Positions 16,543 to 61,624 of a DNA stretch of 64,000 bases are shown piece after piece. The number at the start of each line of letters is the position of its first letter. Within the stretch, counting starts at the first letter, position 1. The notes beneath the pieces were generated by a model. The model was not told the origin of the DNA, searched no databases, and was given only the letters and a program-made list of their open reading frames with translations. The stretch is from Mytilus edulis. Lineage: Eukaryota. A program made the position numbers and the translations under genes. Location of the stretch: contig NC_092351.1 in NCBI RefSeq assembly GCF_963676685.1, positions 83,576,001-83,640,000 on the forward strand, written 5' to 3'.

Positions 16543-17789
16543 TTAACCATATAACGAATTCATCGCACGCTGGACTCTTTCTACTGAGTTTTGTTGAAAA
16601 AATAAACAATGAAACACAACAACATTAATAGATGACGTCACCATTAACAGAAAACGGGACGTCATGACCACTCTATGAAATTTACTAGCCCTTACGGATC
16701 CATAGGGGGTCCCCATGTGTAGCTTTAATCTAATCAAAACGTGATAATTTACCCGCGGTGCGATAAAAAGTTATCGATAAATTTCATAAAAATAAAATCT
16801 TAATTCTTAATGTTAATAATTAGATTAATCTTTTTTCATTACGTTTTTATCTTCTCTTCATACACATAATTAACAAAATCATAAAGTAAACCAACCTTGA
16901 GTACGCGTTTTGTCTACGTTAGACCATTTGATGGCACTCGAATTTAAACATTTGGAAGGCCGATTCGAACACATTGTTTAATCCGAAAATTGAAATCGAA
17001 AATATGTGCACAATTATACAAACAATGTATTTCTACTGAGAGCACATATTTCCCAGTTAATATGAAATTCCAGGGCTCGTATTTCCTACCATGACTTCAT
17101 TGAAAGAAGGTTGCAGCTTACTAGGAAGCTTTATGTGAGTAGTTTTAATTGGTGAAGTTGAAATCATCCTTTCTTAAATTTTACTAACGCCATCTCAAGT
17201 TGGTTGAAAACTTGGCATAAAAATTACGAGAGGGATTTTTTTACAAATTCATCTCAGGTTGTCAATTCCTGCGGCAAAACATCATTAGTATGTTTTAAAC
17301 AAATTTTCTTTGAGGAACATTAACATAAAGGTGCAATAATGTTCTTAATTTGTCCCTTTTATGTTTCTAAAATTTGATCTTTTGATTTAATATTGAAATC
17401 ATTTCTGTCTTAAAGGTCAAATTCTGTAAAATAAAATTTTAAAAAATCTAACGTTTTTCACCAATGACGTCACAAGACAGACACTTTGACACGTTGTCGT
17501 GAAAATACAAATCTTTGTCATACTTTTTATTGTTTGTGGACCATCCAAAATTAGGCAATGCAAGAACCGACCAAATGCTTGTCTGTATCGTATGCTGGTC
17601 AGTTAATGAACAAATACGTTTCATGTTATTGTTTTGCTTTTGTAAATAAACTCACCATAGATATCAGGATTAAAATTTCATATTTACGTCAGACGCGCGT
17701 TTTGTCTACAAAAGACTCATCAGTGACGCTCAAATCCCAAAATGTTTAAAAGGCCAAATAAAGTATGAAGTTGAAGAGCATTGTACTTT

Positions 17790-19093: not shown

Positions 19094-20428
19094 TTAACTT
19101 TTGTTGGTGTACACATATTTGTTTTCCGTTCATTTTTTTAACATAAATTATGCCATCAGATTTCTTGTTTGGATTTTTTTACATTTGTCATTTCATGGCC
19201 TTTTATAGCTGCATGACTATGCAGTATGGGCTTTGCTCAATGTTGAATTATTGGAACAAAATATAATATCGTTATAACAGAACAAGGAAAATGCTGGGTT
19301 TTTATCATTTCTTTGTAAGAAATGTGAAGTTAAAAGATAAGAAGCTCATGTATAAACTAACATTTATAAGAATACAAGGTATTAGTTTTTGTCAATGCAT
19401 CTAACAGCGTAGATACAGTGGATGTTTAGATAACGCTATCAACAGTTCTTAGTCTTATAATAAATTATCTTAAATTGGTCCACCCCTCCCGAAAAAAAAG
19501 AAGAAAGACAGATAGTACAATGTCATCTTGGAAGTTTATCCAACATATGTTCTATCGAAATTTACGCCAGACGCATGTTTCGTCTATGAAACGCTCATTA
19601 GTGACGCTCCAAACCAAAAAAGTTAAACAGGCCAAATAAAGTACGAAGTTGAAAGACATTAAAACCGACATTTCTTGAAGTTTTGACAAATACAGCTTAG
19701 GTCATCGATTCCTGAGGTAGAAATAAGCCTTAACATTTCAAATATTAAAATTTTTATAAAAAGTTAATTTATGATATGACCATATCATTGGTCACTAATG
19801 TCAAAACAGGAGTGTTAACTACTGGGTTGGTGATACCCTTAGGGAATAAAAACTCCACCTGCAGTGGAATGCACTTGCATTTTGATTACATAGTTTGGGA
19901 TTATTACATGATTCAAGTTCGATAAAAATAAAAACAAGTACGGAAAAGACAATTCCCACTAAATATTCCGATTTCAAAGCATATTTAAAAAAACAAATTT
20001 ACTTGAAAAGTATATGTCTCCCCTTGTAACTCGTGATGTTTCATAATGAAATGCAAATATGTAGAACTTAAATGTTCCATATACTTAAAGAGTGTATCAG
20101 AAATGCACTTAATAATTATTATTAATAATAATAATGATTCAATTTCAACATACAAATGATACAGTTCAAAATAAAGTGCGTTAAAATAGGTCACATTATT
20201 TCCAAATTATATCACTGTACAGAACTATCAAGGACATTTTCAACGAAATGGATATTCAATTTAAGGTAATAAATTCATGTTGGACTACATATCCCTTGTG
20301 TCTCAGATCAGCTTTTTATTTGGTCAAGTTCACTATTTTTAGTTCGATTTGAAAAAGAAAATAAAGTCATCCTAGATACCAGGATTGAAGTTTAGTATGC
20401 ACGCCAGACTCGGGTTTGGTCTACACTA

Positions 20429-27600: not shown

Positions 27601-29866
27601 TCCGATTAGATCCCGAAAAGTAGGCGGATGGTCATAAAGTTTCAAAGGCCAAAAGTTTCAGAAGGTACACTTGTCGTATATCAAACGAAAGGTCATACAA
27701 AGAACATTACAAAAACATCACTTTTACAGGAAAGACCTTTCAATTGTTTTACAAACAATTTAGATACTAGTTATATATGTTTTTATATATATTAATCCTG
27801 GTAAAGGATCACCAAAGAAACTTTAAATTATTTTGCCATGTTTATTACAAGTTTTTCAATTGGTTGAAAGATATAGGAATATGTGGTATAAGTGCCAAGG
27901 TGATAACTCTCCATCCAAGTCACAATTTATTAAAAGTTAACCTTTATGGATCAAGGTAGGTCTTTAACACAGAGCCTTAGCTCGCACCATAATGCAAGCT
28001 TTAAATGGCACCCAAAATCACTAGTGTAAAACCGTTTAAACGGAAAAACCAACGGTCTAATATATGTATAAAAACGACCAAAGAGCAGAAAATAGCCGAA
28101 AGCAACTTTGTCTTGTCTACAGGATACCAACTGACATAATAAAAAATACCATGGTAGTAATATGTATCTGTTACATTTGATCTTAACTATACATACTGAA
28201 AAGTACAAATCTGATTTTTTTCACCTGAATATGTATAAACCATTCATACATGTGTTTCAAGTTATAAATAGAAAATGTGTTAAAATTCATCTGACACTTT
28301 TAAAAACTTAGTAAGTGTGTCTAATTTTCGAACTATATACATAAGCATTACTTTTTTTCAAATATCATACCAATACACTTGATGTGTTTTGTGAATCGAT
28401 TTTATGCTATGTTTATTGTAAAGGTCCTTAAATAAAACACATATATTTCATTTCATACAATTTATAGGTAATGCATGGATTTTATTGTTTTGGGCCAATA
28501 GAAACAAATTATATGAACAAACTGTATGAGTGTTACCAATTTCTACATTTAAGTAGTATTCGGACTTGGTCTACATTTTATTGACAATCAGAAAAGCAGT
28601 TATTCACCCGGTTTTGTATTGATACACCACGATATAATTTAAGTAAGTGCTGATGACCATAGTTGTTGCATTCGTCTTTGTCCATAAGTCTTTTTGTGGT
28701 AAAGTTGTCTTATTTACAAACACACCCTACTTTTGTCATAAAACAATGCACTAGTAAGACAAAGGGGGCGTATATCACAATCATGTTTGTTTTAAATAAA
28801 TAAAACATATGTATGTACAAATGTCTGAATTTTAAAGAAAACATGCAACAATGTGCGTGTGCCTTTCTGCATGAATATTTATCTATAATATTTTTTTATT
28901 CAATATTGAATACTCCGAAATCCATAATAAGATATAAACAAACCTGAGACTATAACAGCAATTACTCACCTATTTTTTGTTTATCTTTGATTATAAGTGA
29001 AACATATTGATCTGTAAATTTGCTTTCTTGATCTTCACTCGCCGGGATTCGAACCCCTGCTTCTGAGATATTGTGATACCAAATCGCCTGCACTGTACCC
29101 GTCCCACTAGATCACACGACCACCTGGGCTTCATAAAAATGAAGTTTTTGGTGGCCGGGTGTTACCTTTCCACGTTAGTTATAATCTAGCGTCGTACTAC
29201 AGTACATGATATATAAGGCAGGAAAATGTTATTCTTACAGATCAGCTTATAAATTAATTATCAAAAATACCAGGATTATAGTTTTATACGTCAGACGCGC
29301 GATTCGTCTACATAAGACTCATCAGTGACGCTCATATCAAAATATTTTAAAAGCCAAACAAATACCAAGTTGAAGAGCATTGAGGACCCAAAATTCCAAA
29401 AAGTTGTGCCAAATACGTCTAAGGTAATATATTCCTATCTATAGTAACATAAAGGATCCCACAAATTAATGTAGGATACAGTCATAGAAAATAATTATAT
29501 TTATAAGTACATCTGAGCCAATGACAACTCTACAACAAACTTATCCATCGGATCATCAGCAGTGATGGTGATACAGGGATGTGTACATTTTTGTATATAC
29601 AACTCGTCTAAACATCAACCCAACCATGTTCATGATGTTAGATCTGTAAACTTGCTTTTGCAATTTTTTTAGTCTTCTTTCGCCATGATTTGAACCCATG
29701 CTGCTGAGATATAATGACACCAAATCGCCTGCACTCTATCAAATGACTATGAAGACAACAAAAACAAAATAATCGAAGTATCATGTTGTAACAATTATAA
29801 CAATAGACCTAAGCTACTATTTAATGAAAATAATGAATGGATCATAGTAATACTCACCGTTGACAT
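21626..29866 (-). CDS. ADF/cofilin family actin-depolymerizing factor; coding exons 29866-29858, 25479-25344 (or -25335), 24349-24229, 21782-21626; probable non-coding exon donor at 31063
   Basis: Spliced protein MST|GVTVANECVEEFERLKMKKAYHYITFKLDNEMTHIVVDKT..|VAYKRFLQELVEVGDCRYAVFNAQW..KNNIVFFAW|SPEDSPAPHKMVYTTSKDYLKRAL..LQGT..EFDFKEV..*. GT-AG junctions are phase-consistent. Two candidate phase-1 donors exist for exon 2. Confidence 0.9.
26250..27772 (+). mobile_element. Helentron-associated interspersed element (HINE/DINE-1-like) in cofilin intron
   Basis: 5' hairpin GGTCTTTCC-CCTACGTAA-GGAAAGACC; 3' subterminal GGAAAGACC followed by the short palindrome AATTGTTT-TAC-AAACAATT and CTAGTT. 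Confidence 0.7.
29010..29740 (-). mobile_element. Pol III (tRNA-related) repeat, ~1.5 tandem copies, with a retrozyme fragment inserted (~29255-29440)
   Basis: Minus strand shows A-box-like GGTGGTCGTGTGATCTAG and B-box GGTTCGAATCCCGG. The same family is at 62862-63140. The nested hammerhead 29288-29331 has GAAA changed to GAAU. Confidence 0.65.
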
Positions 29867-34350: not shown

Positions 34351-35541
34351 TTATTTGTTTGTTTGTATAAAACTTTTAGCCTGTTGTTCAATGTTGCCGT
34401 GTCTAAATGCTCAAAATATGTATAAAACTTGTTCTCAGATAACCAAAATAAGGTCTATAAGTTATAACAACAATTAAATTGAACTTGAATAACATGAATA
34501 AGGTAATGACTGGTATCAATTTAAGGGAGGGGGTGTGAATATGTTTTTATATTAATTTAGATTTTTGATGCAGAGCGCAACATCTGTTTCAATGGCAAAA
34601 ACTTGTTGATAGTCAGAAAACGGAACAAACTAATTTTTATTCTAAATAGAATGTTTAGGTGAAAATCATACCCCTCCACAGCTTTAAGTTCAACAGTCTT
34701 TGCCTTTTTAATTTGATCAATTCAAATATTTGATTCTTAACAGAATGTATGCGCATGTAAAGAGACGTCCTGAATATGTGTGAAATATTTGCCACTGAAC
34801 GTTCAACAACCAATAATCTATCAATGTAACGAGTTATTTGTTTGCAATAAATCACTTCGGATTGTTAAACTTGATTGCTTCGTCATCGACTATGCATGAT
34901 CTTCACAATAAGTTGCACATGCATGTATCACTTTATATTAACAATGTACAAAAAATGTATATACATTTGTACATATATTGTATTAATCACAATCACATGG
35001 TCATGGTTAAATTAAAACACATATATGGCTGTGATGAATATAGGATGATATTATATATGTTACGTTACAGTACCTTGTTTAAATGTTTTAAATGACCACA
35101 TAATTGATATTATTGTCAACACCGAAGTGCTGAATACTGGGCTGGTGATACCCTCGGGGACGAAACGTCCACCAGCAGTGGCATCGACCCAGTGGTGTAA
35201 ATAGTTATCAAAGGTAATAGGATTATAATTTAGTACGCTAGACGCGCGTTTCGTCTACATAAGACTCATCAGTGCCGCTCATATCAAAATATTTATAGGG
35301 CCAAACAAGTACGAAGTTGAAGAGCTTTGAGGATCCAAAATTCCAAAAGGTTGTGCCAAATACGGCTGAGGTAATCTATTCCTGGGATAAGAAAATCCTT
35401 AATTTTTCGAAAAGTTCAAGGTTTAGTAAACACTAAATTTATAAAAATGACCATATAATTGATATATATTCATGTCAACACCGAAGTGCTGACTACTGGG
35501 CTGGTGATACCCTCGGGGACGAAACGTCCACCAGCAGCGGC

Positions 35542-36659
35542 CAGGCGCGTAGCTGCCTATACGCTAGCACGCAGTTGCGTGCACATCGATTCAGCATGCA
35601 AAAAAAAAAAAATGGCAAAATAAAAATTTATAGATTGAATGTTAAAGGAAACACCTATGTTGTCACTTTTTGAATTGATGAAATATCATTAAATAACGGC
35701 ATTTGGTTTCAAAATAAAAGTTTCATTGGAGATTATGACAAAATCGGACAGTAACTTGTATCTTTTACTAGATTTGAATTTGTAATACTCAGTCTAAGAC
35801 ATGTAGTTTTTGGAGCATTTGTTACAGTGCACGGTTCATTAGTTTGGAATGAGATGTACCAATCGGCATAAGAGTTATCAGAACCCCTCGATATCGTTAA
35901 AAATATGTCGAGGCGATGTGGTCGACAGACTACCAGATCCAATCACCCTGCAAACACGCCAAAACAGTATTGGAAAGTCTCATTATTTTTTGCGTTCATA
36001 GACCATATGATATGATAAGGGAACTAGAGAGTGGAGTCGCGTCTAGTATTATCAGAAAATCGCACTTTTGCGCTGTATCTGCTCAATCGTGTTGTAAGAA
36101 ATATAACAAACGAAAAAATCTCAACATTATCTGAGACATACGAAACTGACCTGGCATGTGATTTTGACGAATTTAATTGGGAGGTCGCTCGATGCTGAAC
36201 ACGTACGCTGGTTCTGATGATAACATCTCGCGAGTGCTACCATGGAGATCTATCAGTGTACTAAGTATGTTGAAAACAAATGTACGATCAACAATGAACG
36301 ACAGTTACTAGCATTACTGCATATTCATCGGGATTTCAGTGTGAATATTGACAATTAAAGTAATACAGAAGTTTGTTTCTGCCTAGACCCGAAGAGCAGA
36401 TTTTGGACAATTTTTAGTAAATTCTGTATCACAAATATGTGTTGTTTATGTATTACTCTATTCAGAAGATTTATTAATAGTTTTACATTCATAATTTTTT
36501 TATAAGTCCTATCTACATATAGCTCCTCTTTTAACAGTCCTATGACCGAAAACCGAAAAAAAACCCAATTTTTCTGCATAAAAGGGTCCCAAAAAATTTT
36601 CGCCTCGCTCCGCTCGGTGGTAGTTGCTTGCACATCGTTTCTTTCTAGCTACGCCCCTG
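35542..36659 (+). mobile_element. Internally deleted hAT transposon, 5-bp TSD GCGGC
   Basis: TIR CAGGCGCGTAGCT / AGCTACGCCCCTG; GCGGC at 35537-35541 and 36660-36664. Remnant hAT dimerisation domain SISVLSMLKTNVRSTMND..LALLHIHRDFSVNID at ~36250-36357. Confidence 0.85.
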
Positions 36660-36716
36660 GCGGCATCGACCCAGTGGTGTAAATAGTTATCAAAGGTACC
36701 AGGATTATAATTAAGT

Positions 36717-36760
36717 ACGCCAGACGCGCGTTTCGTCTACATAAGACTCATCAGTGACAC
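36717..36760 (-). ncRNA. Minimal type I hammerhead ribozyme (best-paired copy in the array)
   Basis: GUGUCA-CUGAUGA-GUC(UUAUGUA)GAC-GAAA-C(GCGC)G-UC^UGGCGU; palindromic helix III ACGCGCGU. Confidence 0.85.
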
Positions 36761-39059
36761 TCATATCAAAATATATATAAAGCCAAACAAGTACGAAGTT
36801 GAAGAGCATTGAGGATCCAAAATTCCAAAAAGCTGTGCCAAATACGGCTGAGGTAATCTATTCCTGGGATAAGAAAAGCCTTAGTTTTTCGAAAAATTCA
36901 AGGTTTAGTAAACACTAAATTTATAAAAATGACCACATAATTGATATTCATGTCAACATTGAAGTGCTGACTACTGAGCGGGTGATACCCTCGGCAACGA
37001 AACGTCCGACAGCAGTGGCATCGACCCAGTGGTGTAAATAGTTATCAAAGGTACCAGGATTGTAATTTAGTACGCCCGACGCGCGTTTCGTCTACATAAG
37101 ACTCATCAGTGACGCTTATATCAAAATATTTATCAAGCCAAACAAGTACGAAGTTGAAGAGCATTGAGGATCCAAAATTCCAAAAAGTTGTGCCAAATAC
37201 GGCTGAGGTAATCTATTCCTGGGATAACAAAATCCTTAGTTTTTTGAAAAAATCAAGGTTTAGTAAACAGCTATAAAAATTAAGAGTTGTCATACTTCTT
37301 GATCGTTTCTTCTAATGCAGTGTGGGTTCTGAGTGTTGGAATTTATTTGTTATAAAATATTCTCCGTCATTTTGATCGTACAAATGAAAAAGTATAAGAA
37401 AAAAGGTCGCGTTTGAATGCGAATTCAAGAATTTGCATTTCCTCTAAGAATTTATTGCTAGAGGGTTGCTTTCTTCATATATCTGGCAGCTATCTTACCA
37501 AAAATTATAATGCTTAAGTTGAATTAATCATCTCGAGTCCCTTCGAAAATTTCAAAAATGTCATCACAAGGTAGTTGATCGTTATGGAAAACCTGTTTAA
37601 AAGTTCACACCGGATTTGTTCAAATGTCGTTACCAAAATCTTGTTTCCTTTTCCTTGATTATGACCTGCCAATTATACAAATCGACGGGTTTGTACTGAT
37701 GAGCATCTCGATGAGTGTGAAATATGGATTAGGATATGTTTACACTTCCAGAGCACCTGTAAGCCCTCGGTTGTTGGTGGGGTTTATGTTGCTTTAGTTT
37801 TTTGGTTTCGTCCATGTTTTGACAATTGTTGTTAAGTTTTTTTTTTATTGGAGTTTGACTGTTAAAATCTAATACAGCGGTAGATAAAATTGTTTTACGT
37901 TACAACAATTAGATACAACATTTGGATATTGAACGTTATTTGAAGTAGACATTTGTATCCATATGATGAGTTAAGCCTTTTCCAACTGATTTTTATAGTT
38001 TTATATTGTAATGTTTCACCACTGTCCTAGGTTAGAGAATGGTTTAGATCACGCTAAATGTTCAATCAAGCAACATTCTGTATGTTTGTGTCTGTCTTAA
38101 GTCAGGAGTCTGTAATTCGGTGGATTTCGTATGTTGCTTTGTTACATATTTGTTTTTCGTCCATTTTTGTGTACATTAATTAATCCGTTAGTTTTCTTGA
38201 ATTGATTTGTTTACATTGTCATTGCAGGGCCTGATACTGTTGACGGCCGTAAGGTGTCCTATATTGTTAATTGTTTTGTCCTTTTGGTCTCTTGTGAAGA
38301 GTTGTATCATTGGCAATCATACCACATCTTATCTTATATATACACCTCCGTTCTGGCGATATTATTTAGATGTAGTGATTGACTTTATGAACAAATTAAA
38401 TGTGAAATATACAAAAGAAAATGCAGTTGACCTAGAAATCCAAGACATCCAGACAGGTCGATTACCATTTACTTATTGTTACGTAAATAAACGAGTAAAA
38501 TATATATATTTCATAAACCACTTCGATTAGTTTTATAAATGTTTATTTGATTTGAATAGGTTTACAAATTTAAACTTAGAAATTCATCCACAATAACATT
38601 CCTCTTCAACAAATATTGAACAGTGAAATGTATATATTAAATAAACCATTTCGATAAGTTTTATAAATGTTCATTTGATTTTAAGAAGGTTTACAAATCT
38701 AAACTTAGCAATTCAACCACAATAACATTATGCAATCGCATTTAAAACGTTGTACTCAAATAAAATGTTAGCATCAATGATTCAATAACTCAAATAAATG
38801 TATTTATCAAAGTTGTACAAAATCGAACATGTAAAATGTTATTTGTTTAAAGTTAACACGTGTTTGGTTAATTATAGTAAGGTTGGTTCGATTGGGATAT
38901 TGAGTTAATGCACGAGTGAACTCAGGTGGTTTAAAGTCATTCGAGCCAAAGTCAAAGTGTACAGTAGCATTTTATTATGTTCTCTCCACCTTGTACTTTA
39001 CGTAATACGGCAAGTTCTGAACGTGAAGAAAGTCACATCTATGACATTAAGATACTGAG

Positions 39060-45880: not shown

Positions 45881-48620
45881 GTTGTTAGTGAAGCCACTGG
45901 CCATATCGTATAATATAAGCAACTTGGCTGATAGTTATTCAAACCGCTGGAAATGTTGTTATTGAAACTACTAGGCGTGATTTTTATTGATGCCACTATT
46001 CGTGTTGTTTTTTAATACATTGCACAAATTTTAATTAAAACCACTGGGCTGATACTTGATTAAGGGTCTTGAAATGTTGTTATTTACGCCACTGGGCGTG
46101 TTGTTATTGATGCCACTGGGCGCGTTGTTATTGACACCACATGGCGTGTTGTTATTAACGCCACTGGGCGTGTTGTGATTGACGTCACTGAAGTTGTTGT
46201 TATTGACGCCACTGGGCGTGTTGTAATTGATGCCACTGGGCGTGTTGTTATTGATGCCACTGAGCGCGTTGTTATTGACACCACATGGCGTGTTGTTATT
46301 GACGCCACTGGGCGTGTTGTGATTGACGTTACTGGGGTTGTTGTTATTGACGCCACTGGGCGTGTTGTTATTGATGCCACTGTGCGTGTTGTTATTGATG
46401 CCACTGGACGTGTTGTTATTGACACCACTGGGCGTGCTGTTATTAACGCCACTGGGAGTGTTGTTATTGACGCCACTGGGCGTGTTGTTATTGACGCCAC
46501 TGGACAGTTTGTTATTGACGGCTCTTGGCGTATTATTGACGCGAATGGGGATGTTGTTATTGACGCCACCGGGCAGGTTGTTATTAAAGCCGCTGGGCAG
46601 GTTGACACTGAAGCCCCTGGGCAAGATGCTGTTGAAAACACTGAGTAGTGGGTAGGTTGTTATTGACACCACTCAGCGTAATGTTATAAATATCACTGGG
46701 CAGGCTGTTATTGACGCTACCGGGCAGGTTGTTGTTGACACCACTGGGCGTGTTATTATTTAGGCCACTAGGCAGGTTGATATTGAAACCACTGGGCAAT
46801 ATGCTGTTGAAGCCAGTAGGCAGTTTGTTATTGACGCCTCTTGGCGTATTATTGACGCCATCGGGCAGGTTGTTGTTGACGCCACTAGGCGCGTTGTTAT
46901 TACAGCCACTGGTCAGGTTGACATTTAAGCCACTGGACAAGATGATTTTGAAGTCACTGGGCAAGATGCTGTTGAAGCCACGGAAAGGGTTGTTATTGAG
47001 GCCTCTTGGTTTGTTATTGACATCACTTGGCGTGTTCTTATTGACACCACTTTGCGTGTTATTATTGACGTGATGTTATTTACGCCACTGGGCAGGTTGT
47101 TATTAACGCCAATAGGCAAGATTCTGTTGAAGCCACTGGGCAGGTTGTTATTGGCGCATACTGGCGAGTTATTGACGCCACTGGGCACGATGCTGTTGAA
47201 GCCACTGGCCATGTTGTTATTGGCGCCTATAAGCGTGTTATTGACGCGACTGGGCGTGTTGTTATTGACGCCAGTGGGCGAGGTATTATTGATGCCACTG
47301 GGTGTTGTTATTAAAGCCACTAGACACATTGACATTGAAGCCACTAAGCATGTTGTAATTCAAGCCATGGGCTACAAGTTATCTAAACCATCAGACAGGT
47401 TGTTATTGATGCCGATGGACAGGTTGTTGTTGACACACAGGGCAATTATGTATTGAAGCCACTGGGTAGGTTGCTTGTGAAGTCAACGAGCAGGTTGTTA
47501 AAAGTTTCACTTGGCATGTTGGTAATGGAGACAGTGGGCAGGTTGTTTGTAAAACCACTTGGCAAGTTGTTGTTGAAGTCACTGGACTAGTTTTTATTGA
47601 TGCATATGGACAGCTTGTTGTTGACGCAGCTGGGTGTGTTCTTATTGAGGCCACTGGGTAGGTTGTCAAAGATGCCACTGGGCGGATTGGTATTGGAGCC
47701 GCTTGGAAGATTGTTTGTAAAACCTGTGGGCAGTCTGTTGGTGAAGACACTTGCCTTGTTCTTATTGACTCCCATAAATGGGCAGGTTGTTGTTTACGCC
47801 ACTTGGCAGGTTGTTTAAGCTCGGGCGTGTTGTTTTTGAAGAAACTGTGCAATTTGTAATTAAAGCTAATGTACTAAAAGTAATTAACCAACTGGACATG
47901 TTGTTGTTGAAGACACTGGGCTTGATGTTGAGGACATTCGGTTAGTAGATATTGAAGACACTGGGATTGGTGTTAAGAACATTGGGTTGGTAAATGTTGA
48001 AGGCACTGGGCTTGGTGTTGAGGACATCGGGTTGGTAGATATTGAAGACACTGAGCTTGGTGTTGAGGACATTAGGTTGATAGATGTTGAATACACTGGG
48101 CTTGGTGTTGAGGACATTGGGTTGGTAAATGTTGAAGACATTTGCAGTGACTTGACTGGTTGTTGTTGAAGCCACTGAGCAGGTTTTTATTACAAGCACT
48201 TGACTGATAGTTATTCAAGACATGGGACATGTTGATGTTGAAAAAACTGGGTAGGTTTTTATTGCAAACTCTTGGCTGGTAGTTATTCAAGACACTGGGC
48301 ATGTTGATGTTGAAAACACTGGGTAGGTTGTTGTTGAAGACACTGTGTATGTTGTTATTGAATACATTGCTGATTGTTTTTGAAGACTTTCGACATGTTG
48401 TTTAGTTATTGAGGACAATGGGTTTTTTGGTATTGAAAAAAAAAACTGAGCTGGTTGTTGAAATTAGCTGCTGGTTGTTAAAGATACTGGACTGATTGTT
48501 GTTAAAAACACTGGATCGGTTTTGTAAACGCCCCTGGAGATGTTATTAAGACACTAATGTTGTTGTCGTTTAAAACACTGGGCAAGTTAAATTAAAGGCA
48601 CTTGGCTGGTTGATGTTGCT
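45881..48620. repeat. Degenerate 24-bp array (GTTGTTATTGACGCCACTGGGCGT)n with a 45-bp sub-array (~47900-48140); fainter units also at ~39900-40020 and 40722-40742
   Basis: Units are directly visible and give stop-poor octapeptide ORFs in several frames (NNNTPSGV, TTRPVASI, VVIDATGR). Confidence 0.9.
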
Positions 48621-50916
48621 TAGCAAATTATTATTATAGTCACTAGGGTGAATGTTTAGACAATACGAAATTGTATTGAATCTATTAGACATGTATTTTG
48701 GTATAGTATTTAACTAAATAAGTTTCTTTAAATAGTTATAATAAGATGCTCACATACACCTGGATCAATATATAATTTAAAATAAAATTCACTAAGTAGT
48801 CAAATGTTAATAAGTTCTCAAAATGATTCGTCTCTCGAATTCAAGACCCAGAGCTAACACCTGTACTTCTGATAAGATTTTTCTGAAGCATAACAGGTTA
48901 CATCCGGACAGAGGAAAGGATGGTGACGTTAGAAAAGACTTTCCAGCACAGTTATCTATTCATCGAAATTAGGAAATAAAAACAAATATTCAATGTTATT
49001 TTCCCATTCTTTGTGTTTCGAGAGCCATTGCCTCTGCAAGTGGCGTCTCCCATGTAAGAGTTTGTGAATATTTGATAAATATTTTATGTTCGTATGAGTT
49101 TACGAATTAGAATTTAAATGTATTTATCAAAGTTGTACAAAATCGAACATGTAAAATTTTGTTTGTTTATAGTTGACACGTGTTTGGATAATTATAGTAA
49201 GGTCGGTTCGATTGGGATATTGAGTTAATGCACGAGTGAACTCAGGTGGTTTAAAGTCATTCGAGCCATTGCAGTCAAAATGTACAGTAGTATTTTGCAA
49301 AAGAAACAATATTATTAATCATATTATTTATTTTAAGATTTGTGAACCACAAGTATTGGGAAACCAGTACATGCGACTAAGTAGCTATATAGACATGTAT
49401 TTATATGAACTTTCAACAATATTTTACTCATATTTATGATAAAATGTGCGCTTGTCTCTGCAAAAAGTAAAATCACAAAAATACTGAACTCAGAAGAAAA
49501 TCAATTAGGAAAGTCCATAATACATGGCAAAATCAAATAACAAAACGCATCAAAAACGAATGGACAAGAACTGTCATATTCCTGACTTGGTACAGGCATT
49601 TTCAAATGTAGAAAATGGTGTATTAAGTGGCGTCTCCCATGTAAGAGTTTGTGGTTATTTGATAAGTATTCTATGTTCGTTTGAGTTTACGAATTAGAAT
49701 TTAAGTTTTATTTTATCATATAAGACATGTCTATAGATACAAACCCTTCCTCTTCTAAAAATACTGTAGTGCAAATGAAGACCTTGCCCAATTGTGTTGG
49801 TTTTTCGGAAAAGAGTTTAATAGAAATAAGAAAAAGAAAACCGGTAATAATACTATAATGAGAAAAAAACATTTTAATAACATAATTGTTAAAGACAATT
49901 GGTATAGTATTTAGCCTTAACCTACACATTTTCAATAAAACACACATAATAACTCACTCAAATACACAAAGGAATGATCAAATTAAAAAAACAATATATA
50001 TAATACCGTCACATACAATTTTTATCAGATCAAAAATTTTCAAGAAAACAAATGCGTTGATTTTATTCAGCTTCTGCTATTAATGTTCACGTATGACACG
50101 TATGCGGAAAGCTCACCTGAATACACTTAACATTTTAAGCTATAAAATAAATTACGTTTCTTGGAATTGTTTTATATGATTCTTAGTGCCCCCTACAGTT
50201 TTCACTAGAACATGGATTTAATCATATACTGTAAATTCCAAAATTATTTTTGAGCGATAGATACAAATGTCGGTCGATTATCGATGTAGCATACAGATTA
50301 TAAGATAAAATATGAAATAATAATTTGTTTTTGTGTCATCTTTTGCGTCGCAAGTTTTGAATTAATAAAACCATTTCAAAGACTTCAGAATTTACGTTAA
50401 TGCAAAGTTCATGAGATTTTACATTTCCTTTTATTCTCTCGTCTTAATAATGTAATTATATCAGTATGACCCATATGCGAAGCGACATCCAAAGCACTTT
50501 CATGGCGTTGGTTTCGAAGGTTAGTATTACAATTGTAACCTAATAACAGTTCTACAATGCGGGTATGACCCATACTTGAAGCTATGTGTAGAGGACTCTG
50601 CTTGTACTTATCACACAAATCGGGATTACTATTGTTTTCTAACAATGTTTCTGCAATTTCTGCATAACCTTTAAACGTTGCTTTAAAAAGAGGCGTTTCC
50701 ATCTGTTTGTTACATTTATTTGTATCACAGTTCTGTTTTAACAATAATCTAACAATATCAATATAACCCTTGCCTGCAGCTATGTTCAAAGGTGTCTCAC
50801 CATACTTATCACAAATATTAGGATCACAATCATGTTCTAACAATAATTCTACAATTTCTGCAAAACCCTGAAGCGATGCTTTAAAAAGAGGCGTTTCTTG
50901 ATTTTTGTTACATATA

Positions 50917-51122
50917 CTGTAAATTCAGAAATTATTGCGAGGTTTTTATTATTGCGAATAATGCGACTGAGTTGTAAACGCAATAATTAAAACTCGCATT
51001 TTGTAATATTTGAACTGACTTAAGCATGACTTTTCTCAAAATCGTAAAAATTAAAATCACATTCAAGTGTAAAATGACAAAATCGCAATAATAAATGCAC
51101 GCAATAATTTCTGAATTTACAG
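50917..51122. mobile_element. Tc1/mariner-pogo-like MITE, TA TSD, inside the ankyrin ORF
   Basis: TA|CTGTAAATTCAGAAATTATTGCG ... CGCAATAATTTCTGAATTTACAG|TA. Excision restores CYPNICNKNQETPLFKAS. Confidence 0.92.
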
Positions 51123-53331
51123 TATTGGGATAACATTTGTATATTAGCAATAATCGTACTATAGCCGTATTACCATTTCTTGAAGCTGTGATGAGAGGTT
51201 TTTCGTCATCATAATTACATATGTTAGGATTACAATTGTTTTGCATCAATAACTCCACAATGTGTGCGTTAGAGTTATCAACAGCTGTAGAAAGAACCTT
51301 TTTATATGTTTCTATACTGATATCAAGTTCGGTTTTTTGTTGGTTAAAGATGTATTTGACAATTTCGGTATTACCAAAGCAGGTTGCAGCATACAGTGGA
51401 CTTGTATCGGACGAATCACACACCTCAATTTTGCACCTGTGATCAATCAGAAGTTTGGCAATATTGGTTAGCCCAGAGTATGAGGCTATATAAAGAGGTG
51501 TCATGCTTTCTTTATTGAACATGTTTAACTCACACTCATGATGCAATAATAATTCCATAACCTCAAAATGGTTATGAGCAACAGCAATGAAGAGAGGTGT
51601 CTCGTGTCTCTTATTGCAGAGATTGAGCTCACATTTGTGGTGTAGGAGCAATTTAACAATTTCTACGTTTCCTTTCCCAGAAGCGACAAACAGTGGTGTT
51701 TCGTTTTCTTCATTACAGATATTAAAATTACAATCGTAATTTAATAATAATTTGACTATTTCAGTATAACCATGTAAGGCTGCTATATAAATGGAGGTTT
51801 CTTTGTCATTATTGCAAATATTCGGATTAGCGTTATGTTTTAATAATATATTTACAATATCTATAGAACCATTTGAAGCAGCCGAACACAAAGGACTGCT
51901 GATATCAAGATCTGCTTTGTACTCTAACAATAATGCTAGCATATCAATATTACCAGTATGTGAAGCAACTATATCCAGACAGGTTTGATTGTTTGGACTA
52001 AGAGTATTTATATAGTCAGCACCTTCAATCTCATCACTCAAAGGTATATATGCTTTGGTAGCATTTTGCTCTTTATCGTCATAGATGTGTTGTAATAGCA
52101 ACCTCGCTATGTGGATTCTATTTTTAATGCAAGATATAAATAACGCGTTTGCAAGGTTATCATAGAATATATAACGATCACAATAGTGTTGCAACAATAA
52201 TTTTACAACCTGAATATGGTCGTTATGGCAAGCTATCAACAACGGTATTTTGTCTTTTATATTGCAGATATCTGGATTACAATGGTGTTGCAAAAGTAAA
52301 TGAACAATATCAGCATTACCATCTCTCTCGGCTAAATAGAGTGCTGTCTCATTATCTTTATTAAAGAGATCTAGATCATCGGTATGTTCTATTGATGATT
52401 TAAGAATATCTGTTTTACCAGACATCGAGGCGATATGCAAAGCTGTTTTATTGGCCCTGTTACAGATATTTGCAATACACTGGTGTGTCAACAATAATCT
52501 TATTATCTCAATTCGACCATTCATACAGCCATCATAAGCGGTGTGCACCCAAAAGTATCGGCAGCATTTACATTTGCTTCTTTTTTTAACAATAATTTAA
52601 CAACATCTGTTTGACCTGAGAAAGAAGATCGCAACAGAGGCGTTCCTCCATATTTATCACGTATATTTATGTCACAATTCTGGTTTAAAAGTATTTTTAC
52701 AATATCAGCATGACCAACACTGCTCGCTACGTGCAGCGCTGAGTGGTTGAATTCGTTATCATTACTATTTACTTTAACTTGTTGTTCCAATAACGAATTA
52801 ACTGCAGTTATATCACCCTTCTTGCAAGCCAAATAAAAACGTACTGTATCATAACGATTCTTCATAATTTCCCTATCTTTAAATTGTAGCATCATGTCTA
52901 CAATTTTTGTGTAATCATTTTCTACAGCAACGAAGAAAGGTGTTATATTGATTATATTACAAATATTGTAATCGGCGCCATCTTTTAAAAGTTCCTTTGC
53001 AGTATCCGTGTGGTTTGCCATCGAAGTTCTCAAAAGAGGTGTTACATTATCCTCATCGCGGTGATCTGTTTCTGATTTGTACTTTAACAGTAACGTTACA
53101 ATGTCTGTGTAACCTTTTTCCGATGCAATATCAAGAGGTATACGACTGTACTTATCACTCAAATTTGGGTTTCCTTTATATTCTAGTAGTAACTTTACAA
53201 CATCAATAAAACCTCCCTTTGCAGCTTCAAACAGAGGTGTAACATCTCCCCAGCTACCAATATTAGAGTCGGCATTATATAATAGCAGTAGTTTAACTAT
53301 AGCGGCATCTCACTTCAATGCAGCTACATAC

Positions 53332-55193: not shown

Positions 55194-55341
55194 AATAGGA
55201 TCTCTACAGTATCAACAAAGCCTTCTGATGACGCTTCATATAATGATGTATCGAATGAACCATCGGTGCTAGTGTTACAATTCACAGCAACATGTTCTGA
55301 TAATAATAGTGTTAGCATGTCACTGAAACCTTGACGAGCCA

Positions 55342-56307
55342 TTGACATCAACAACAGAAAAAGAAAACCAACCTTATACTGTATACCCTATCACAGATGC
55401 TGAAGTAAATGCCACACTGCCATTTTTAACTATTGACGATATCAGTAGTGAGGAAGTTACATTTTATACAGGTTTACCTAATAAGCCGACATTTTATTTA
55501 TTGTATGAACATATTATGTCAAATATAAAAATTGTTGAGCCAGAGACTGGAGGCAGACCTCAAAAACTTAGAGGTGTGGATGAATTATTTATGGTTCTAA
55601 TGCGGTTGCGTCTGGGTTTACTTACTCAGGACTTGGCACGTCGTTTTAATATTTCTGTTTCTACTTGTAGTAAAATATTTAACAAATGGATTGATTTAAT
55701 GTATGAACATTTACATTTTCTTGTTGCCTGGCCTGATAGAGAAACTGTCAAATGTAATATGCCTGACAGTTTTAAAAGGAGGTATCCAAATTGTCGTGTA
55801 ATTATAGATTGTACTGAAATATTCACAGAAATGCCACAGTCATTATCTAATAAAGGAAGAATGTACTCTGACTACAAGTCACATACGACATGGAAAGTTT
55901 TAATAGGAATAAGCCCAAATGGTGTGATTACTCATGTGTCTGACCTTTGGTCAGGTAGTATATCAGATAAACAAATAACAAAATCCAGTGGTCTTATTAA
56001 CAAGTGTGATCCAGGCGATGCAATAATGGGGGATAAAGGATTTCTTATATCTCATATGTGTACTCCGAAAGGAATTTATCTCAAAGTACCACCAACCAAA
56101 AAAAATGGTAAATTGACAAAACATGAAGTTGAAAAAACGAGGAGGATAGCTAATCTTAGAATACATGTTGAGCGTGCCATGGAAAGAATTAAAAACTTCC
56201 GTATAATACAAGGAGTAATGCCAATTTCCATGTCAGAAAAAGTTTCAAAGATTGTATTTATTGTTTGTGCTCTTTGCAATTTGCTACCACCTCTTATTCA
56301 ACAATAA
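55342..56307 (+). CDS. HTH_Tnp_4 + DDE_Tnp_4 (HARBI1/ISL2EU-type) transposase, N-terminally truncated
   Basis: FYTGLP, LFMVLMRLRLG..QDLARRFNIS.STCS.IF..W, IIDCTE, YSDYKSH.T.K.LIGISPNG, G.ISDK, GDKGF, IANLRIHVERA.ERIK.F. D-D-E triad intact. No true start codon or THAP domain seen. Confidence 0.9.
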   Translation: MTSTTEKENQPYTVYPITDAEVNATLPFLTIDDISSEEVTFYTGLPNKPTFYLLYEHIMSNIKIVEPETGGRPQKLRGVDELFMVLMRLRLGLLTQDLARRFNISVSTCSKIFNKWIDLMYEHLHFLVAWPDRETVKCNMPDSFKRRYPNCRVIIDCTEIFTEMPQSLSNKGRMYSDYKSHTTWKVLIGISPNGVITHVSDLWSGSISDKQITKSSGLINKCDPGDAIMGDKGFLISHMCTPKGIYLKVPPTKKNGKLTKHEVEKTRRIANLRIHVERAMERIKNFRIIQGVMPISMSEKVSKIVFIVCALCNLLPPLIQQ

Positions 56308-57632
56308 GTTATAATTGTTTTACTTGTAAATACTTGTCACATGACTGTTTTCACTTTGTCCTTCTGTCAGTAAACAATTTTCAAATACACAAAAACTCCA
56401 AAAAGAAGTACATTGTATAAACAAATGTTTATTTATGACCCAAAATGAAACTATGGATGTTCTACCTTCTATTTTGATATGCATATTAATTTGTGAAAAG
56501 GGAGCTACTTTCAGTAAATAAAAGGCCTATTTTCTGCATGTTTTGGTTAAAAATTAAAATGTTGATGAATATTTCTTTGTAAATACACAACCAACTTCAA
56601 AATATGGATGAAATTCTCTTAAATTGTACATGTATCTATTGATTTTGCATTTATATATATGTATACATGTATAAAGTACATTTAATTAATCTAGTTCTAG
56701 GATTTTAAGAAATGTTTACTTGTAGATACTGTTTACATATATGTATTATTAGCATGATATACAAGGAATAAATTAATATCAACATGATACAAATAAACAT
56801 TTTTTAGCATTGATTGATCCTTTATAGTATGTTGATTTTATAATACTAGGAGATGTGTTGTGATTGCAAATGAGAAAAGTATTCACCAGAAAACCAATGA
56901 CATGTAGTTTGCCTTGAGAACTTCAATAATGAGCAAAACCCATATTCCATCATATCCAGAACATATTTAGCCAAACCATGCATTTACCTGTATAAATAAA
57001 ATGATTTGTGGTTTATACATCTCTGACACAGAACAGCAATCATGACATCCTGATATCTAATATCAGTCACTGTACTTCACAAAATTGTATAGCTTTAAAG
57101 CCTTTTTTAATATTTGAACATGTTGAAGCACATCATGGTGAAAATCTTGTTTTAATGTAGGATAATTTGAACCTTTAATTGCAAATTATACTGTAGGGTT
57201 CAGATTTTTGGTGTTCATTCCAGAATAAATTTCTGACATGACAGTCTTTCAGGTTTACCCATTCTCAGACTTTTTCATTTTTATTTGATCAAGTGACGTC
57301 CATGATTTTCCCTCTACAAATTGAAAAAAAGTTGTATACCACAATAAATTAAAAATGAATGAATCCACAGTAATTTATATGACTTTTCTTGTGTGCATTT
57401 CAGAAATACTATAAGAGAAAGATAACTAAAATTAAATTTTAACATGTTTAATGCGTGTACTCACAACTGCCATGATTATTTTTGGCTAGAATATATAAAT
57501 ATAATCAGGTACATGTATGTAGGTTGTACATGTCTCTTATTCTGGTGTTTAAGTAACATTATGAAATTTTAAAACAATAAATTATCTTTTGTTCGAAAAC
57601 ATTGTTGCACATTTAAGGAATTAGTCGGAGAG

Positions 57633-60265
57633 TTAATTGTACAATTTCAGCCTTCGTTTTACACGGCTTGTAAATAGTTCTGGTACAATGGCACTACAGA
57701 AAAATGCATTTAACTTAGGTAACATGATGTTTTCCCAAAGTTCTTTGTAATAGCATATTCTTTCAAACTCCATTCCTTTATTGGTCCAAACAACAAAGTG
57801 ACACCATGCACGTTTAGTTATAGCTAATTGTCCCTGAACTTGATAATAATAAGAATGACTACGTTTAAGTCTTAAACGCCCAAAATTATCCAGTTCACAA
57901 CAAAAATTGCTCTGCCTTGCCGCTTCCAACGGATGCGTGTCTCTTAGGGCATAAGGACATTTAACCTCAATCACACCATGATATGGATTACAATGTGGAC
58001 AATAGACTAATCCATCAGGAGTAGCACCCAAATGTGGCAAATTCTCATTTATAATGACACCATTTTTTGTAGCTGTGAGTGGTGGATGACTCTCCCTTAC
58101 ACGAATGAGGTAGCTATCAATAGCTATTTGCTCATGATCTTTGCCCCAGCTGATTGCTGCATTTTTGAAACTTGGTGTGTAATCTAAAAGATACTTTATG
58201 AGGTTGTCAGGTTCAGTGTCAACCTTTCTCCTGACAATATTCCCAAACTTTGACGCCGTTAGACGCCCTCTGCGTACCTGTTTCCATAGAGAGTTTTTGT
58301 GTTGCTCTCTTGTAGCTACTTCAATTTTACTACAATCATCCTTTGTTATTTTCAAACTATCAAAATAGGATAAAAAATGTTGAACACACTCAATACTAGT
58401 AATATCAACTGTATCCATGTATGAAAAGTTAATGTTATGAAGTTTTGGCAATGTTGATACACTTGTATTATTCTCACATGAATCTGATATTTGTGGAAAG
58501 TTCATTAACCAGCCAGCATCAGGGTTTACATTCATAAGTCTTTCCTTAAAGCTCAGAATTGCTGGAGTTGACAGATCTTTCGAGAACGATGCATTTACAC
58601 TGTAAAGGGAAACTTTTCTATCGGGAGACTTAAATTTATTGAATACCATTTCTTGAGTTTTTTTTGGAGACAGGTTTCTGTTGCGTGGCTTTATCCATTC
58701 ACAAGCCTTTGAGGTTGGTGCAATCTTGCCAGAATATTTTTGTTGTGTTATGTCTGCTATGCCATATAGAAGAGCTGCTATGTGACTACAGGATTCTCCA
58801 GCCCTGCAAAAAACTTCTATATCAATACTTGTAGTCAAATAACTATAAAAACAAAACAATTGTTGAAACACTTCAAAATAAAACTTTAGTAACAATATAA
58901 ACATTAATTTATTGGAACTAGATTAGAAATAGATAGGAAATGTACATTAAGATAATAAAAATAAACTTGCTTCTACATTATAAAATGGTTGTTATATTAT
59001 TTCCATGCTCTAATTAATGATTAGTAAGTACATGTAATCATTTCATGTTGCTTTAAACATTTATCTTAATTTACAACATGAATCTTGATTGTGAAAATTT
59101 GTAAAATTAATCACATGTTCTTCCTATGACCATATAATATATTTGACACCTACAAGTTAATCTTAATTGGTCCAGTATATTTATTTATTACAGGAAAACA
59201 TGCAATTTTACAGGTACAAAATGTAGTCTGCCTGCACAGCTTGGTCTCATTACCAGCTGATAACAGGAAATAACATATACAGTGACAATGAAATTGAATA
59301 TGATTATTTGATCTAAAAAACAATAGTCATTTATTATGTGCATATTTTTTTTTAATGAATATGTGTAAATGTGCAATAGTAACTGTACTAACAATATAAA
59401 AAAATGTATGTCAACATAACTCAAATGGTTGAATAATGAAGGAAAAAATCCAAATAACTTAATTTTGGAATAATCATACTATTAAAGTCATAAAATGAAA
59501 TAATAGAGGAGATTAAAATCATTAATATTGAAAATATTTTTACGGGTTCATTTTTACATTACAAGATCAACAAAATCAACTTTATTTTATTTCTAGCAGT
59601 AGAATCATTTTATATAAAAATGGAATGCAGGTGATGCATGAACAAATTAATGTTTGCTTTATATTGAGGATTGTTCATACATTTTGCAAAAAAAAATATT
59701 CTAAAGAGACTTACCCTGCTACACAGTTGCACTCAGCATTATGAACTCTCCCAGTAACCTTCGACAAATACACCCAAGTCTGGTATGCTGGCTTCTTTTT
59801 CTTATCCTTTGTTGGTATAGATGGGAGACAGTGGCACTTGATGATACAGTGGGAGCACTTTTCAGATATTTGATGGCAATTAATGTTAGAAATGTGTCCT
59901 TCTTGGTAAAAAACCTTTGTCTTCAGTTGACGTCTATCTCCCAATTCACTGGCATCGTAAGATCTATGTCTACTTAAAACTAAAAAGTTATATAGTTCTT
60001 TGTGTGTAAAGTCCGGAAATTGGTCACAATTAGTTGACCAACCCTCCTTTAATTCTGTTGGACTGGGTAAATGTTCACCTAATGGCGTGAGAAGAGGCGA
60101 CTTTATATCATCTCGGGGTGCATTATTGTTTATGTCTAGGCCCAGATCTTTAGCCCCTTTTGCCCGCTCTATTAATTCAGGCTTATTTCCGAAAGTTGGT
60201 TGGTTACACTTCTTCAGAAAATGCTGTAACACTTTCTTTTTCCAAGTATTGAAGTCACTTGTCAT
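57633..60265 (-). CDS. SWIM zinc finger + YqaJ (lambda-exonuclease family) protein; exons 60265-59715 and 58803-57633; 573 aa
   Basis: A phase-2 GT-AG intron joins AECNCVAG|AGESCSHIAALL (CxC-xn-CxH SWIM). YqaJ motifs: W...R..RLTASKF, WGKDHE, LGATPDG, IEVKCPY, YYYQVQGQL. No internal stops. Confidence 0.9.
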
Positions 60266-61624
60266 TGCTATCTATAAAAACTGTCCTGGTTCACGTAGAT
60301 ATCGATATATAGTAAACTAGTAATTGATGAAGTGGGCGTTGTTATGGACGCTGGTAAGTGTACCTACCGGAAGCAGTAAATCTCCGATAGCGGAGAATGC
60401 CTAAAGGGAAATAACCTAGTTATCGGAAAGGGCTATATAGATAGTGTGGTGCACAGTGTATAGAACCAAAAGAAATTTTGAAAAACATAGCAAATACTAT
60501 TTATTTTTACAATATACAATGTGTTTTTTGTGCAAACATTAAAGGTAGTGAAATAGGCATAATGATGACATCTATTAATTTATAATATACGAGCTAAGTA
60601 GAAATTCCCTGCTATATTTATATCTTTTCTATTTTAAGTATCATATTACTTGGAAATATTGTAAACAGCATTTATAAGAAAAGTATTACTGTAATTATAT
60701 AATATAAGTTGATTGGCATATGATATCTATACCTTTTGTATTTTGATATTTCCTGGGCTATTTTCTATATCACTTAATTTGATTTTAAGCATTATACACA
60801 GATGATGACAGAAAAATGCAACATAACAATAAAAAAAGACAATATACATGTATCAAAATAACATTTCTCTGTGGCTAAGGGAAGCAACTCATATTGATAT
60901 GTTACATACACTTTCATATGAAAAACATCCACTTGTTATCCTTTCATTTATGATATATTCGGAAATTGATTTGATATTGATATTCTAAACAATTTGTGCA
61001 AACAGCAGCTAGTACTGAACACATACAGAAAATTTTATGCATACTTTAATTGAATTCATCATCTAAATTATTTTTGCTCTTGATTTTAAGGGAAGCAATT
61101 CCAGCTTAAAATGTTTTCAAATTATTCATATTCATATTACAGATCTATTTTAAATGAGAATTTCACAATTAACATATTAAAACCACCACGTATGCAATGA
61201 TGTAAAAGAACAAACACTAAAAAGAGAGAAATATTTTTATAAAAACTTAAAACAACCTCAGATCTCAGAATGAATAATCGAGTTAATATATATTCTTTGT
61301 ATGTTTATAATCTTGTATGAATATTGTTAGTGCTTCATAAGCCTCTAAAGGCTGGCTGATATGGTATACTATTGCTAATGTATTGAAATGTAATTGTAAT
61401 TTCATGTATATTGTATCAGGTTGCACTTTATATAAAATAAAATCTAAAATCTATATCAGTTTGATAAACACCAGTTTTGATCATTGAGAAGCTTAATATT
61501 CCTTTTACAACACAACGTAATACAAACAATCAGCTGACTCTACAAAGTAATATCCCTGAAGTGTTAGGTACCACTTTAAGACATCCCCAGTTGACAGATG
61601 TCAAAATCTTTTAAATTTTATTAT

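Follow-up and report, generated by a model that had tools for sequence, protein, structure and literature searches.

An interrupted and decayed retrozyme array in Mytilus edulis, of a family likely copied by Naiad Penelope-like reverse transcriptases

The window, a 64,000-nt stretch of Mytilus edulis DNA, carries a tandem array at 35090-37270 whose minus strand holds three identical 32-nt hammerhead cores, as found by exact core search. Four exact matches to this core were obtained in the whole window against 0.26 expected, and at least four were reached in 0 of 100 shuffles; the fourth match, at 8931, belongs to a solo 5'-truncated family copy (8887-9068, minus strand) that ends at +44. Within the array, the Rfam model Hammerhead_1 (RF00163) matched the minus strand at 37072-37115 (E 3.9e-4, predicted cut after 37078), 36717-36760 (E 4.2e-5, predicted cut after 36723) and 35235-35276 (E 6.3e-3, predicted cut after 35241; this third hammerhead spans 35235-35278). 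All three matches score under the gathering score of 34 and were recovered by E-value alone, and a scan of the window at the gathering threshold gave no match. Together, the identical cores and the Rfam matches confirmed the three type I hammerheads that a preliminary description had placed on the minus strand.

As that description also stated, helix III comprises 2 bp and is capped by the palindrome ACGCGCGU as a tetraloop. The Rfam type I consensus likewise has a 2-bp helix III with a tetraloop, and it contains the ACGCGCGUC stretch as well. The word "minimal" does not suit these ribozymes in its published sense, which is kept for hammerheads in which helix III is absent (PMC7761336). Helix I is indeed best paired in the middle copy: at 36723 all six pairs form, three of them G.U, while the 37078 copy has an A.G mismatch at the pair adjoining the cut and the 35241 copy has two mismatches adjoining the core. 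The middle hammerhead, which has an extra G.U pair, gave a constrained energy of -1.9 kcal/mol and is weaker in this respect than the 37078 copy (-5.8) and a young copy (-6.7). In most copies unconstrained folding missed the hammerhead (z -0.26 to 1.11), and the fold of the whole monomer was no better than that of shuffles (z 0.24), so that free folding lends no support. The palindrome ACGCGCGU could form an 8-bp duplex with a computed energy of -13.3 kcal/mol. The suggestion that it favours dimeric cleavage is nevertheless unsupported for the family, as a published single-repeat mussel clone cleaved at ~0.1/min (PMC7229834); most invertebrate type I motifs are described as cleaving as monomers (PMC7761336).

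Read along the minus strand, the array begins with a 5'-truncated unit (37078-37269, unit positions +164 to +355, 95.3% identical to the whole monomer by blastn), followed by the sole uninterrupted monomer (36723-37077, 355 nt), which runs, as previously reported, from one cut (after 37078) to the next (after 36723). The second monomer is divided into a left piece (36660-36722, +1 to +63) and a right piece (35241-35541, +59 to +355), and the last partial unit (35090-35240, +1 to +151) has its 3' end beyond the usual +41 to +45 of the family. Inserted between the two pieces, within the second monomer's hairpin, is a 1118-bp non-autonomous TIR DNA transposon (35542-36659) with 13-bp TIRs (12/13 matching) and a 5-bp target duplication, one copy of which (36660-36664) ends the left piece. 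Its class is indicated by the inverted ends, the duplication of constant length and the lack of a transposase. Of 15 copies examined (40 of 945 candidates were scored), 11 had both ends intact, and 8 of these showed an exact 5-bp duplication; no ATG ORF >74 aa was found in 35542-36659. Because this element sits in the second unit, the second cut-to-cut interval is 1482 nt; the one-monomer spacing claimed before therefore holds for the first interval (355 nt) and fails for the second. Neither the transposon nor the fixed ends and Naiad hairpin presented below had been noticed in the preliminary description. The unit of 355 nt has a GC content of 39%. Tandem Repeats Finder did not report the array, no stop-to-stop frame of at least 100 aa was found in 35090-37270, and no target duplication was seen around the array.

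Genome-wide, the exact 32-nt core occurs 12,280 times (control 0). The family units measure 354-368 bp, belong to at least two related types and form arrays on many contigs. One type I hammerhead per unit, non-coding head-to-tail units within 150-450 bp, GC below 50% and high copy number are the features of metazoan non-LTR retrozymes, and all of them were found. The locus is almost certainly a three-hammerhead array of an abundant family of this class, of the mussel type as judged by comparison with published descriptions. The retrozymes of M. galloprovincialis (Cervera and de la Pena 2020, PMC7229834) are ~350-390 bp repeats with two ribozyme families that yield circRNAs, deposited as MN642551-MN642576, and the earlier assignment to a mussel-type, circle-forming retrozyme fits this account. 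They are also alike in having a type I hammerhead, head-to-tail non-coding units with GC <50%, thousands of copies, related subfamilies and abundant RNA. In contrast to them, the copy at this locus is interrupted and diverged. This kind of self-cutting mussel repeat is already described; what is new is that the insertions end just before a hairpin shared with Naiads. Such a fixed 3' end and shared hairpin do not appear in the available part of the M. galloprovincialis account (PMC7229834).

Units of the present array are 89-95% identical, compared with a within-locus median of 99.2% at other loci (15 pairs) and 95.2% between loci. The uninterrupted monomer has 16 rare letters, each shared by no more than 10% of 25 further monomers. 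Four rare letters are common to all copies of this array that cover the site. The array derives from one template and has since been mutated and interrupted. Family RNA was abundant in three runs (5429 of 8.7M, 6045 of 8.3M and 9351 of 7.3M records) that were picked by species label and come from a related organism (C), with a strand bias of ~2-12-fold by bin toward the hammerhead strand, assuming the usual library polarity. Nothing ties this RNA to the locus. At 37077, 1369 of 1404 and 2708 of 2781 reads carried the family letter instead of that of this copy, as did 682 of 686 reads at 37008, and depth was zero on the unique upstream flank in both RNA runs examined, although the sampled organism may not carry the locus. 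As the DNA run of the sample has no depth at 37262-37318, silence of the locus is not to be inferred from these runs. The family reads run head-to-tail and none of them ends at the cut, which fits circles and uncleaved multimers alike.

These data bear on the earlier proposal that a transcript of the 36723-37077 monomer is cleaved at its two ends with the help of dimeric hammerheads, and circularised. We regard it as rather improbable and the excision as unsupported: the two catalytic cores lie undamaged at a distance of 355 nt, the palindrome could make its duplex and the family is expressed on the same strand, but the A.G mismatch adjoins the first cut in the 5' ribozyme, the monomer carries 16 rare letters, and the reads show the family letters with no depth on the unique flank, albeit in a sample possibly without the locus. 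It can be said with fair confidence that this array is not a real source of circles, and the locus is an ordinary and probably dead one.

After 3 of 71 arrays of the family at locus edges were dropped, 58 of the remaining 68 had their end between 30 and 55 nt beyond the last cut, where a uniform spread would put 7%, and the 5' extents spread over 33-364. Arrays of the A type stop 2-8 nt short of the stem of a hairpin in 31 of 35 cases, and the ends of the Naiad families N1, N2 and N3 fall in the same register before the stem in 44 of 45. The hairpin is a 58-nt fold at unit positions +48 to +105, and it is also present at the start of these three hammerhead-free families. Retrozyme and Naiad have a common terminal signal and a common end position. 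The same hairpin is carried by a third retrozyme family, whose hammerhead is different and whose end, judged by eye, appears to lie just before the hairpin. At the present locus, an intact hairpin at 35136-35193 (minus strand) matches the start of N3, the family with the closest hairpin, at 86% identity over 59 nt, and that of the uninterrupted monomer (36973-37030, minus strand) is damaged by 6 rare letters, 4 of them in the otherwise invariant core; the folding energy of the region is -19.2 kcal/mol in the damaged copy and -28.5 kcal/mol in the intact one. In a small set of six related sequences, with the structure derived from one member, 98.6% of cells were paired, and in 7 of 23 pairs both partners had changed; none of 500 shuffles scored as high, and slid alignments were 38-53% paired. 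The invariant core CUGCUG..GGA/CCGAGG lies inside the covarying stems. A rough word search found no shared target duplication around the other arrays.

Exact hairpin cores number 10,021 genome-wide (control 0). Among N1 loci the core was present in 22 of 30, and among other Naiad loci in 16 of 20; it was absent from all 48 loci of a GIY-YIG set and from all 12 ORF starts of canonical Penelope-like elements (PLEs), a control with few families, some of them probably truncated. As judged from one copy per family, N1-N3 possess an N-terminal GIY-YIG, CxC, DKA and YIDD and no hammerhead core; the Pfam RT match was weak for N2 and none was obtained for N1. N1-N3 can accordingly be classed, by sequence, as Naiads, with N-terminal GIY-YIG, CxC, DKA, a C-terminal RT and no canonical hammerhead. 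The Naiad PLEs described by Craig et al. (2021, PMC8557442) likewise show 5' truncation, tandem units and a fixed 3' end. In our families the hairpin occupies the same register as in the retrozyme, and the 3' UTR of N2 contains a retrozyme-derived segment. Unlike Naiads, which lack a hammerhead, the retrozyme is non-coding and has one, and outside the hairpin no similarity of the retrozyme to N1 or N3 was found. Naiads probably act as the helper of the retrozymes through this hairpin.

A published hypothesis (PMC7229834, PMC7761336, bioRxiv 10.64898/2026.07.22.740005) would have canonical, hammerhead-bearing PLEs of the Neptune/Poseidon type move the retrozymes, in which case the hairpin might be merely the legacy of a Naiad ancestor or a promoter. 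Although canonical PLEs with their own minimal hammerheads do occur in the genome (L132, L142), we consider this very unlikely here, as the monomer has no similarity to canonical PLEs in the examined stretches beyond scattered retrozyme-like pieces and unrelated hammerheads, their ORF starts lack the hairpin, the end register agrees with the Naiads, and the compensatory changes indicate a fold, not a DNA motif. The Xenopus work (Li et al. 2026, bioRxiv 10.64898/2026.07.22.740005) likewise presents animal retrozymes as non-autonomous PLE partners. It rests on frog pLTR similarity, and no molluscs, Naiad link, end mapping or recognition structure were found in its available part. Since it ties frog retrozymes to the pLTRs of Repbase PLEs in vertebrates without detected Naiads, the Naiad link may be lineage-specific.

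Taken as a whole, the best explanation is an interrupted, since decayed array of a retrozyme family that is likely copied by Naiad Penelope-like RTs. Young arrays are transcribed on the hammerhead strand, as the family-level reads of the related sample show if the usual library polarity is assumed, and the RNA would cleave itself into ~355-nt monomers and be ligated to circles, as published for mussel retrozymes. A Naiad protein may bind the hairpin at +48 to +105 and nick genomic DNA, to which the common hairpin and end register point, and cDNA synthesis would begin within the RNA, 2-8 nt upstream of the stem. A precedent is Poseidon PAc, a PLE whose RT initiated internally in vitro (Frangieh et al. 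2024, PMC11167929). There, the RT start is inside the RNA near the pLTR-ORF junction and downstream of the hammerhead cut, RNA is required 3' of the start, and genomic ends mark the start sites. PAc differs in that it belongs to another PLE clade, is autonomous and acts on its own RNA, and its start sites are within a stem-loop (PMC11167929), whereas retrozyme and Naiad ends are found just before the stem.

A start at +42 leaves just 42 nt of a cleaved linear monomer; therefore the template should be a circle or an uncleaved multimer, and since the Naiad RT probably starts internally, a cleaved monomer could be copied whole only as a circle. Rolling round a circle would account for the pattern seen, in which the 3' end is fixed, 5' ends are ragged and units are near-identical. 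We lean slightly towards the circle as the main template. Read-through of an array could instead supply an uncleaved linear multimer on which the Naiad hairpin acts, cleavage and circles being side products. This is less likely, though several observations favour it: PAc inserts from uncleaved RNA and its hammerhead mutants insert normally (PMC11167929), Naiads lack hammerheads, no read ends at the cut, and one array (L006) shows an alternating letter among its units. It accords poorly with circles being the dominant RNA form in mussel northerns (PMC7229834), with the ~99% identity of units in other arrays, as expected from one circle repeatedly copied, and with the exact preservation of the 32-nt core in its 12,280 places.

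The hairpin might also be an RNA-processing or termination element, possibly self-cleaving, with the real RNA 3' end just upstream and end-primed TPRT following. First-mate starts do form minor clusters at 37031 (+47), with 9 molecules where the depth is 30 and 12 where it is 43, but no pile-up was seen there at a looser threshold and depth continues through the site. Moreover, a stable stem can bias random priming, and the insertion ends scatter over 2-8 nt. Even with an invariant core inside covarying stems, and with Naiads in need of some means of defining ends without a hammerhead, we find this explanation quite improbable.

According to the available text of two 2020 papers, the helper enzyme and signal that return animal retrozyme circles to DNA were open (PMC7229834, PMC7761336), and the review among them gives no conserved motif in metazoan retrozymes that indicates a helper (PMC7761336). 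No published hairpin link between Naiads and retrozymes was found in the openly readable literature; end maps or sequences could stand in subscription journals, in the supplement of PMC7229834 or in that of the 2026 preprint. We tentatively propose, with a little under an even chance of being right, that retrozymes parasitise hammerhead-free Naiads via a common RNA landing pad downstream of the copied end, and that circularisation lets the cleaved monomer be copied. If so, this would identify the helper enzyme and the signal it uses and give the circle a purpose, in a SINE/LINE-like partnership whose recognition element lies beyond the copied end and is usable solely on tandem or circular RNA. 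With a 58-nt fold common to one PLE clade and in register with both sets of ends, the question becomes testable by in vitro TPRT of the PAc type.

The 3' end of the present array (+151) is itself atypical and without target duplication, which counts against the Naiad model. In a metagenome scan for the hairpin core, 79 of 80 loci among the matches listed had a GC content of at least 45% and look like chance matches; one locus among them (L311) looks like a true relative.

The tandem hammerhead array occupies 35090-37270 on the minus strand. A loose pattern search of the window returned four identical minus-strand hammerhead matches (0.26 expected). Three of the four lie in the array and are predicted to cut after 37078, 36723 and 35241. 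As Rfam Hammerhead_1 they score 24-31 bits, below the gathering score of 34. The array comprises a first unit truncated at its 5' end, a complete unit, a unit that is split in two, and a last piece of 151 nt. The one-monomer spacing claimed in the preliminary description therefore holds for the first cut-to-cut distance (355 nt) and fails for the second (1482 nt), because a separate repeat of 1118 bp (35542-36659) sits in the latter. This repeat is a non-autonomous element bounded by 13-bp terminal inverted repeats. Its 5-bp target duplication is exact in 8 of the 11 both-ends-intact copies among 15 examined, and its family has 945 candidates in the genome. Counting of pairs bore out that helix I is best paired in the middle copy and mismatched in the other two: the middle copy has one additional G.U pair, and the first has a mismatch at the pair adjoining the cut. 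This pair probably matters for cleavage rate. Since its helix III has 2 bp, as in the Rfam consensus, the motif is not "minimal" as the available text of PMC7761336 uses the word.

Exact copies of the 32-nt core number 12,280 in the 1.37 Gb genome (control, 0), and many stand in arrays whose period is 354-355 bp; a second type has units of about 365 bp. By description rather than by letters, the family fits the non-LTR retrozymes of M. galloprovincialis, for which the consulted part of PMC7229834 gives about 5000 hammerheads in two families with repeats of about 350-390 bp. The earlier assignment to a mussel-type metazoan retrozyme known for circRNAs thus agrees in unit length and copy number. 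Cleavage, ligation and circles of mussel retrozymes are already published there: a single-repeat clone cleaved at about 0.1/min, the 353-nt monomer was ligated by RtcB, and circles were abundant. That clone, and the statement in PMC7761336, as far as accessible, that invertebrate type I motifs mostly cleave as monomers, lend no support to the suggestion that the motif favours dimeric cleavage. A third retrozyme family (loci L217, L223 and L230) has a period of about 350 bp and a different hammerhead with a CUGAAGA core and its own palindromic helix III.

The locus itself is a decayed member of this known family. Its own units are 89-95% identical. The median elsewhere is 99.2% among units of the same locus (15 pairs), against 95.2% for units of different loci; these comparison loci were selected as best matches or for an exact core and so lean young. 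Four rare letters are common to all array copies covering the site; therefore the array derives from a single template and has aged since. The whole monomer carries 16 letters, each shared by no more than 10% of 25 other monomers. Hence, of the proposal that the array templates circles of about 355 nt, the family type stands, while this copy is aged, and it is unlikely that its whole monomer still yields circles.

Ends were mapped in the first 70 core-containing loci from one contig (71 arrays, 3 at locus edges left out). In 58 of 68 arrays, the sequence stops 30-55 nt past the last cut (mode 41-43), an interval in which uniform ends would place 7%, while the 5' extents of the same arrays range widely, from 33 to 364. 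A fixed 3' end with a ragged 5' end is what target-primed reverse transcription leaves when it begins at a single point. Copying from +42 (counted from the cut) runs upstream over the cut, which rules out a cleaved linear monomer as template. An exception is the array under study, with its 3' end at +151. Five further retrozyme fragments lie in the window (8887-9068, 17641-17783, 19563-19870, 29252-29436 and 63760-63923), and four of them end at about +40 to +45. One six-hammerhead array elsewhere (L006, G000:C4, about 80105650-80107580) has one letter alternating among its first units, possibly from a dimer template or later duplication.

A GIY-YIG search gave one element with an N-terminal nuclease, and this element as query gave three main Naiad families (N1-N3; 1053, 1007 and 1000 aa). 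Each has CxC, DKA and YIDD, in agreement with the Naiad marks in the available text of PMC8557442, and the hammerhead core was absent from the one copy checked per family. The retrozyme unit and the Naiads share a hairpin (+48 to +105 in the unit) in the same register. Its core stands at the element start in 22 of the 30 N1 loci and in 16 of another 20 Naiad loci, and was found in none of 48 other loci of the GIY-YIG set. Of 45 Naiad 3' ends, 44 fall 2-8 nt ahead of the stem, as do 31 of 35 ends of A-type retrozymes. An alignment of six sequences has 98.6% of its cells paired, against 38-53% in slid controls, and both sides are changed in 7 of 23 pairs; the set is small and related, N1 was omitted for its extra arm, and the structure was derived from one member. 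The third retrozyme family has the same hairpin and, by eye, apparently the same end position. Of the array's three hairpins, only the third is intact; the transposon interrupts the second, and six rare letters fall in the first. One AT-rich metagenome contig (L311:701-727) also has a hairpin resembling that of the retrozymes, and an old plus-strand N3-like 3' fragment (69%) lies at 37433-37824, upstream of the array by 160 bp and in opposite orientation to it.

By analogy with PAc, the anole Poseidon protein, the hairpin is likely a Naiad landing pad of which retrozymes carry a copy. The Naiad protein would bind it, start reverse transcription internally and roll on a circular template. The behaviour of PAc is described in the available part of PMC11167929: the protein begins reverse transcription within its own RNA and requires sequence downstream of the start; start sites are marked by genomic ends, and hammerhead cleavage is dispensable. 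Helpers among Penelope-like elements (PLEs) were already proposed for retrozymes (PMC7229834, PMC7761336, as far as accessible), backed by pLTR similarity in frogs in the available text of a 2026 preprint (Li et al., bioRxiv 10.64898/2026.07.22.740005). Canonical PLEs are improbable helpers here, the hairpin core being found near none of 12 of their ORF starts (600 nt each side), a fairer control than the GIY-YIG set. We found no publication naming Naiads or the hairpin as the signal, though supplements or subscription journals could hold one. The interest rests on the family-level result rather than on the locus.

The 3' UTR of N2, an autonomous Naiad family, holds a sense-strand retrozyme segment, 70-75% identical, in all 8 N2 loci (L186-L191, L204 and L205; in L205 at about 5090-5380). 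This captured, degraded segment starts at +105 and continues around the unit to +41, where the family has its fixed end; its core is dead and the hairpin is missing. An old insertion or a template switch may account for it, and either origin gives retrozymes and N2 a common history; a chance insertion is possible with more than 12,000 retrozyme copies about. A partial duplicate lies immediately upstream of the segment, and window positions 4194-4780 resemble the same UTR region.

The family is expressed. In four raw-read runs of a related sample, records matching one permuted unit at 88% or more numbered 5429 of 8.7M, 6045 of 8.3M, 9351 of 7.3M and 2924 of 12.7M. Three runs were biased roughly 2-12-fold by bin toward first mates on the plus strand, which means hammerhead-strand RNA given the usual polarity of stranded libraries; the fourth was about 1:1. 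Hundreds of reads cross from one unit to the next in head-to-tail order, and the cut site showed no listed pile-up of read ends in these runs, which fits circles and uncleaved multimers alike. Uncleaved multimers are a possible template, if a less probable one than the circle preferred here. Most family reads are just 90-95% alike, and where this copy has private letters they show that of the family. RNA depth over the unique upstream flank was 0 in both runs inspected, but the same organism's DNA run also gave no cover at 37262-37318, so that the zero is no proof of a silent locus. A small pile-up of first-mate starts at 37031, one base before the hairpin stem, appeared in two runs (9 and 12 molecules) and is possibly an RNA 3' end or priming bias. 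That the hairpin is a processing site we consider improbable. These alternatives, a still active monomer and canonical PLE helpers among them, are not all mutually exclusive.

Elsewhere in the window, a DDE_Tnp_4 transposase (plus strand, 55327-56307) faces a YqaJ-like nuclease (minus strand, 57633-58922) and a SAP-domain frame (minus strand, 59711-60271), and the whole (55327-60271) resembles a DNA transposon that carries accessory genes. On the minus strand, an ankyrin-repeat coding stretch in three frames or pieces lies at 50409-53309, and 24-bp tandem repeats at 46075-48400 encode Thr/Pro-rich mucin-like repeats in interrupted frames.
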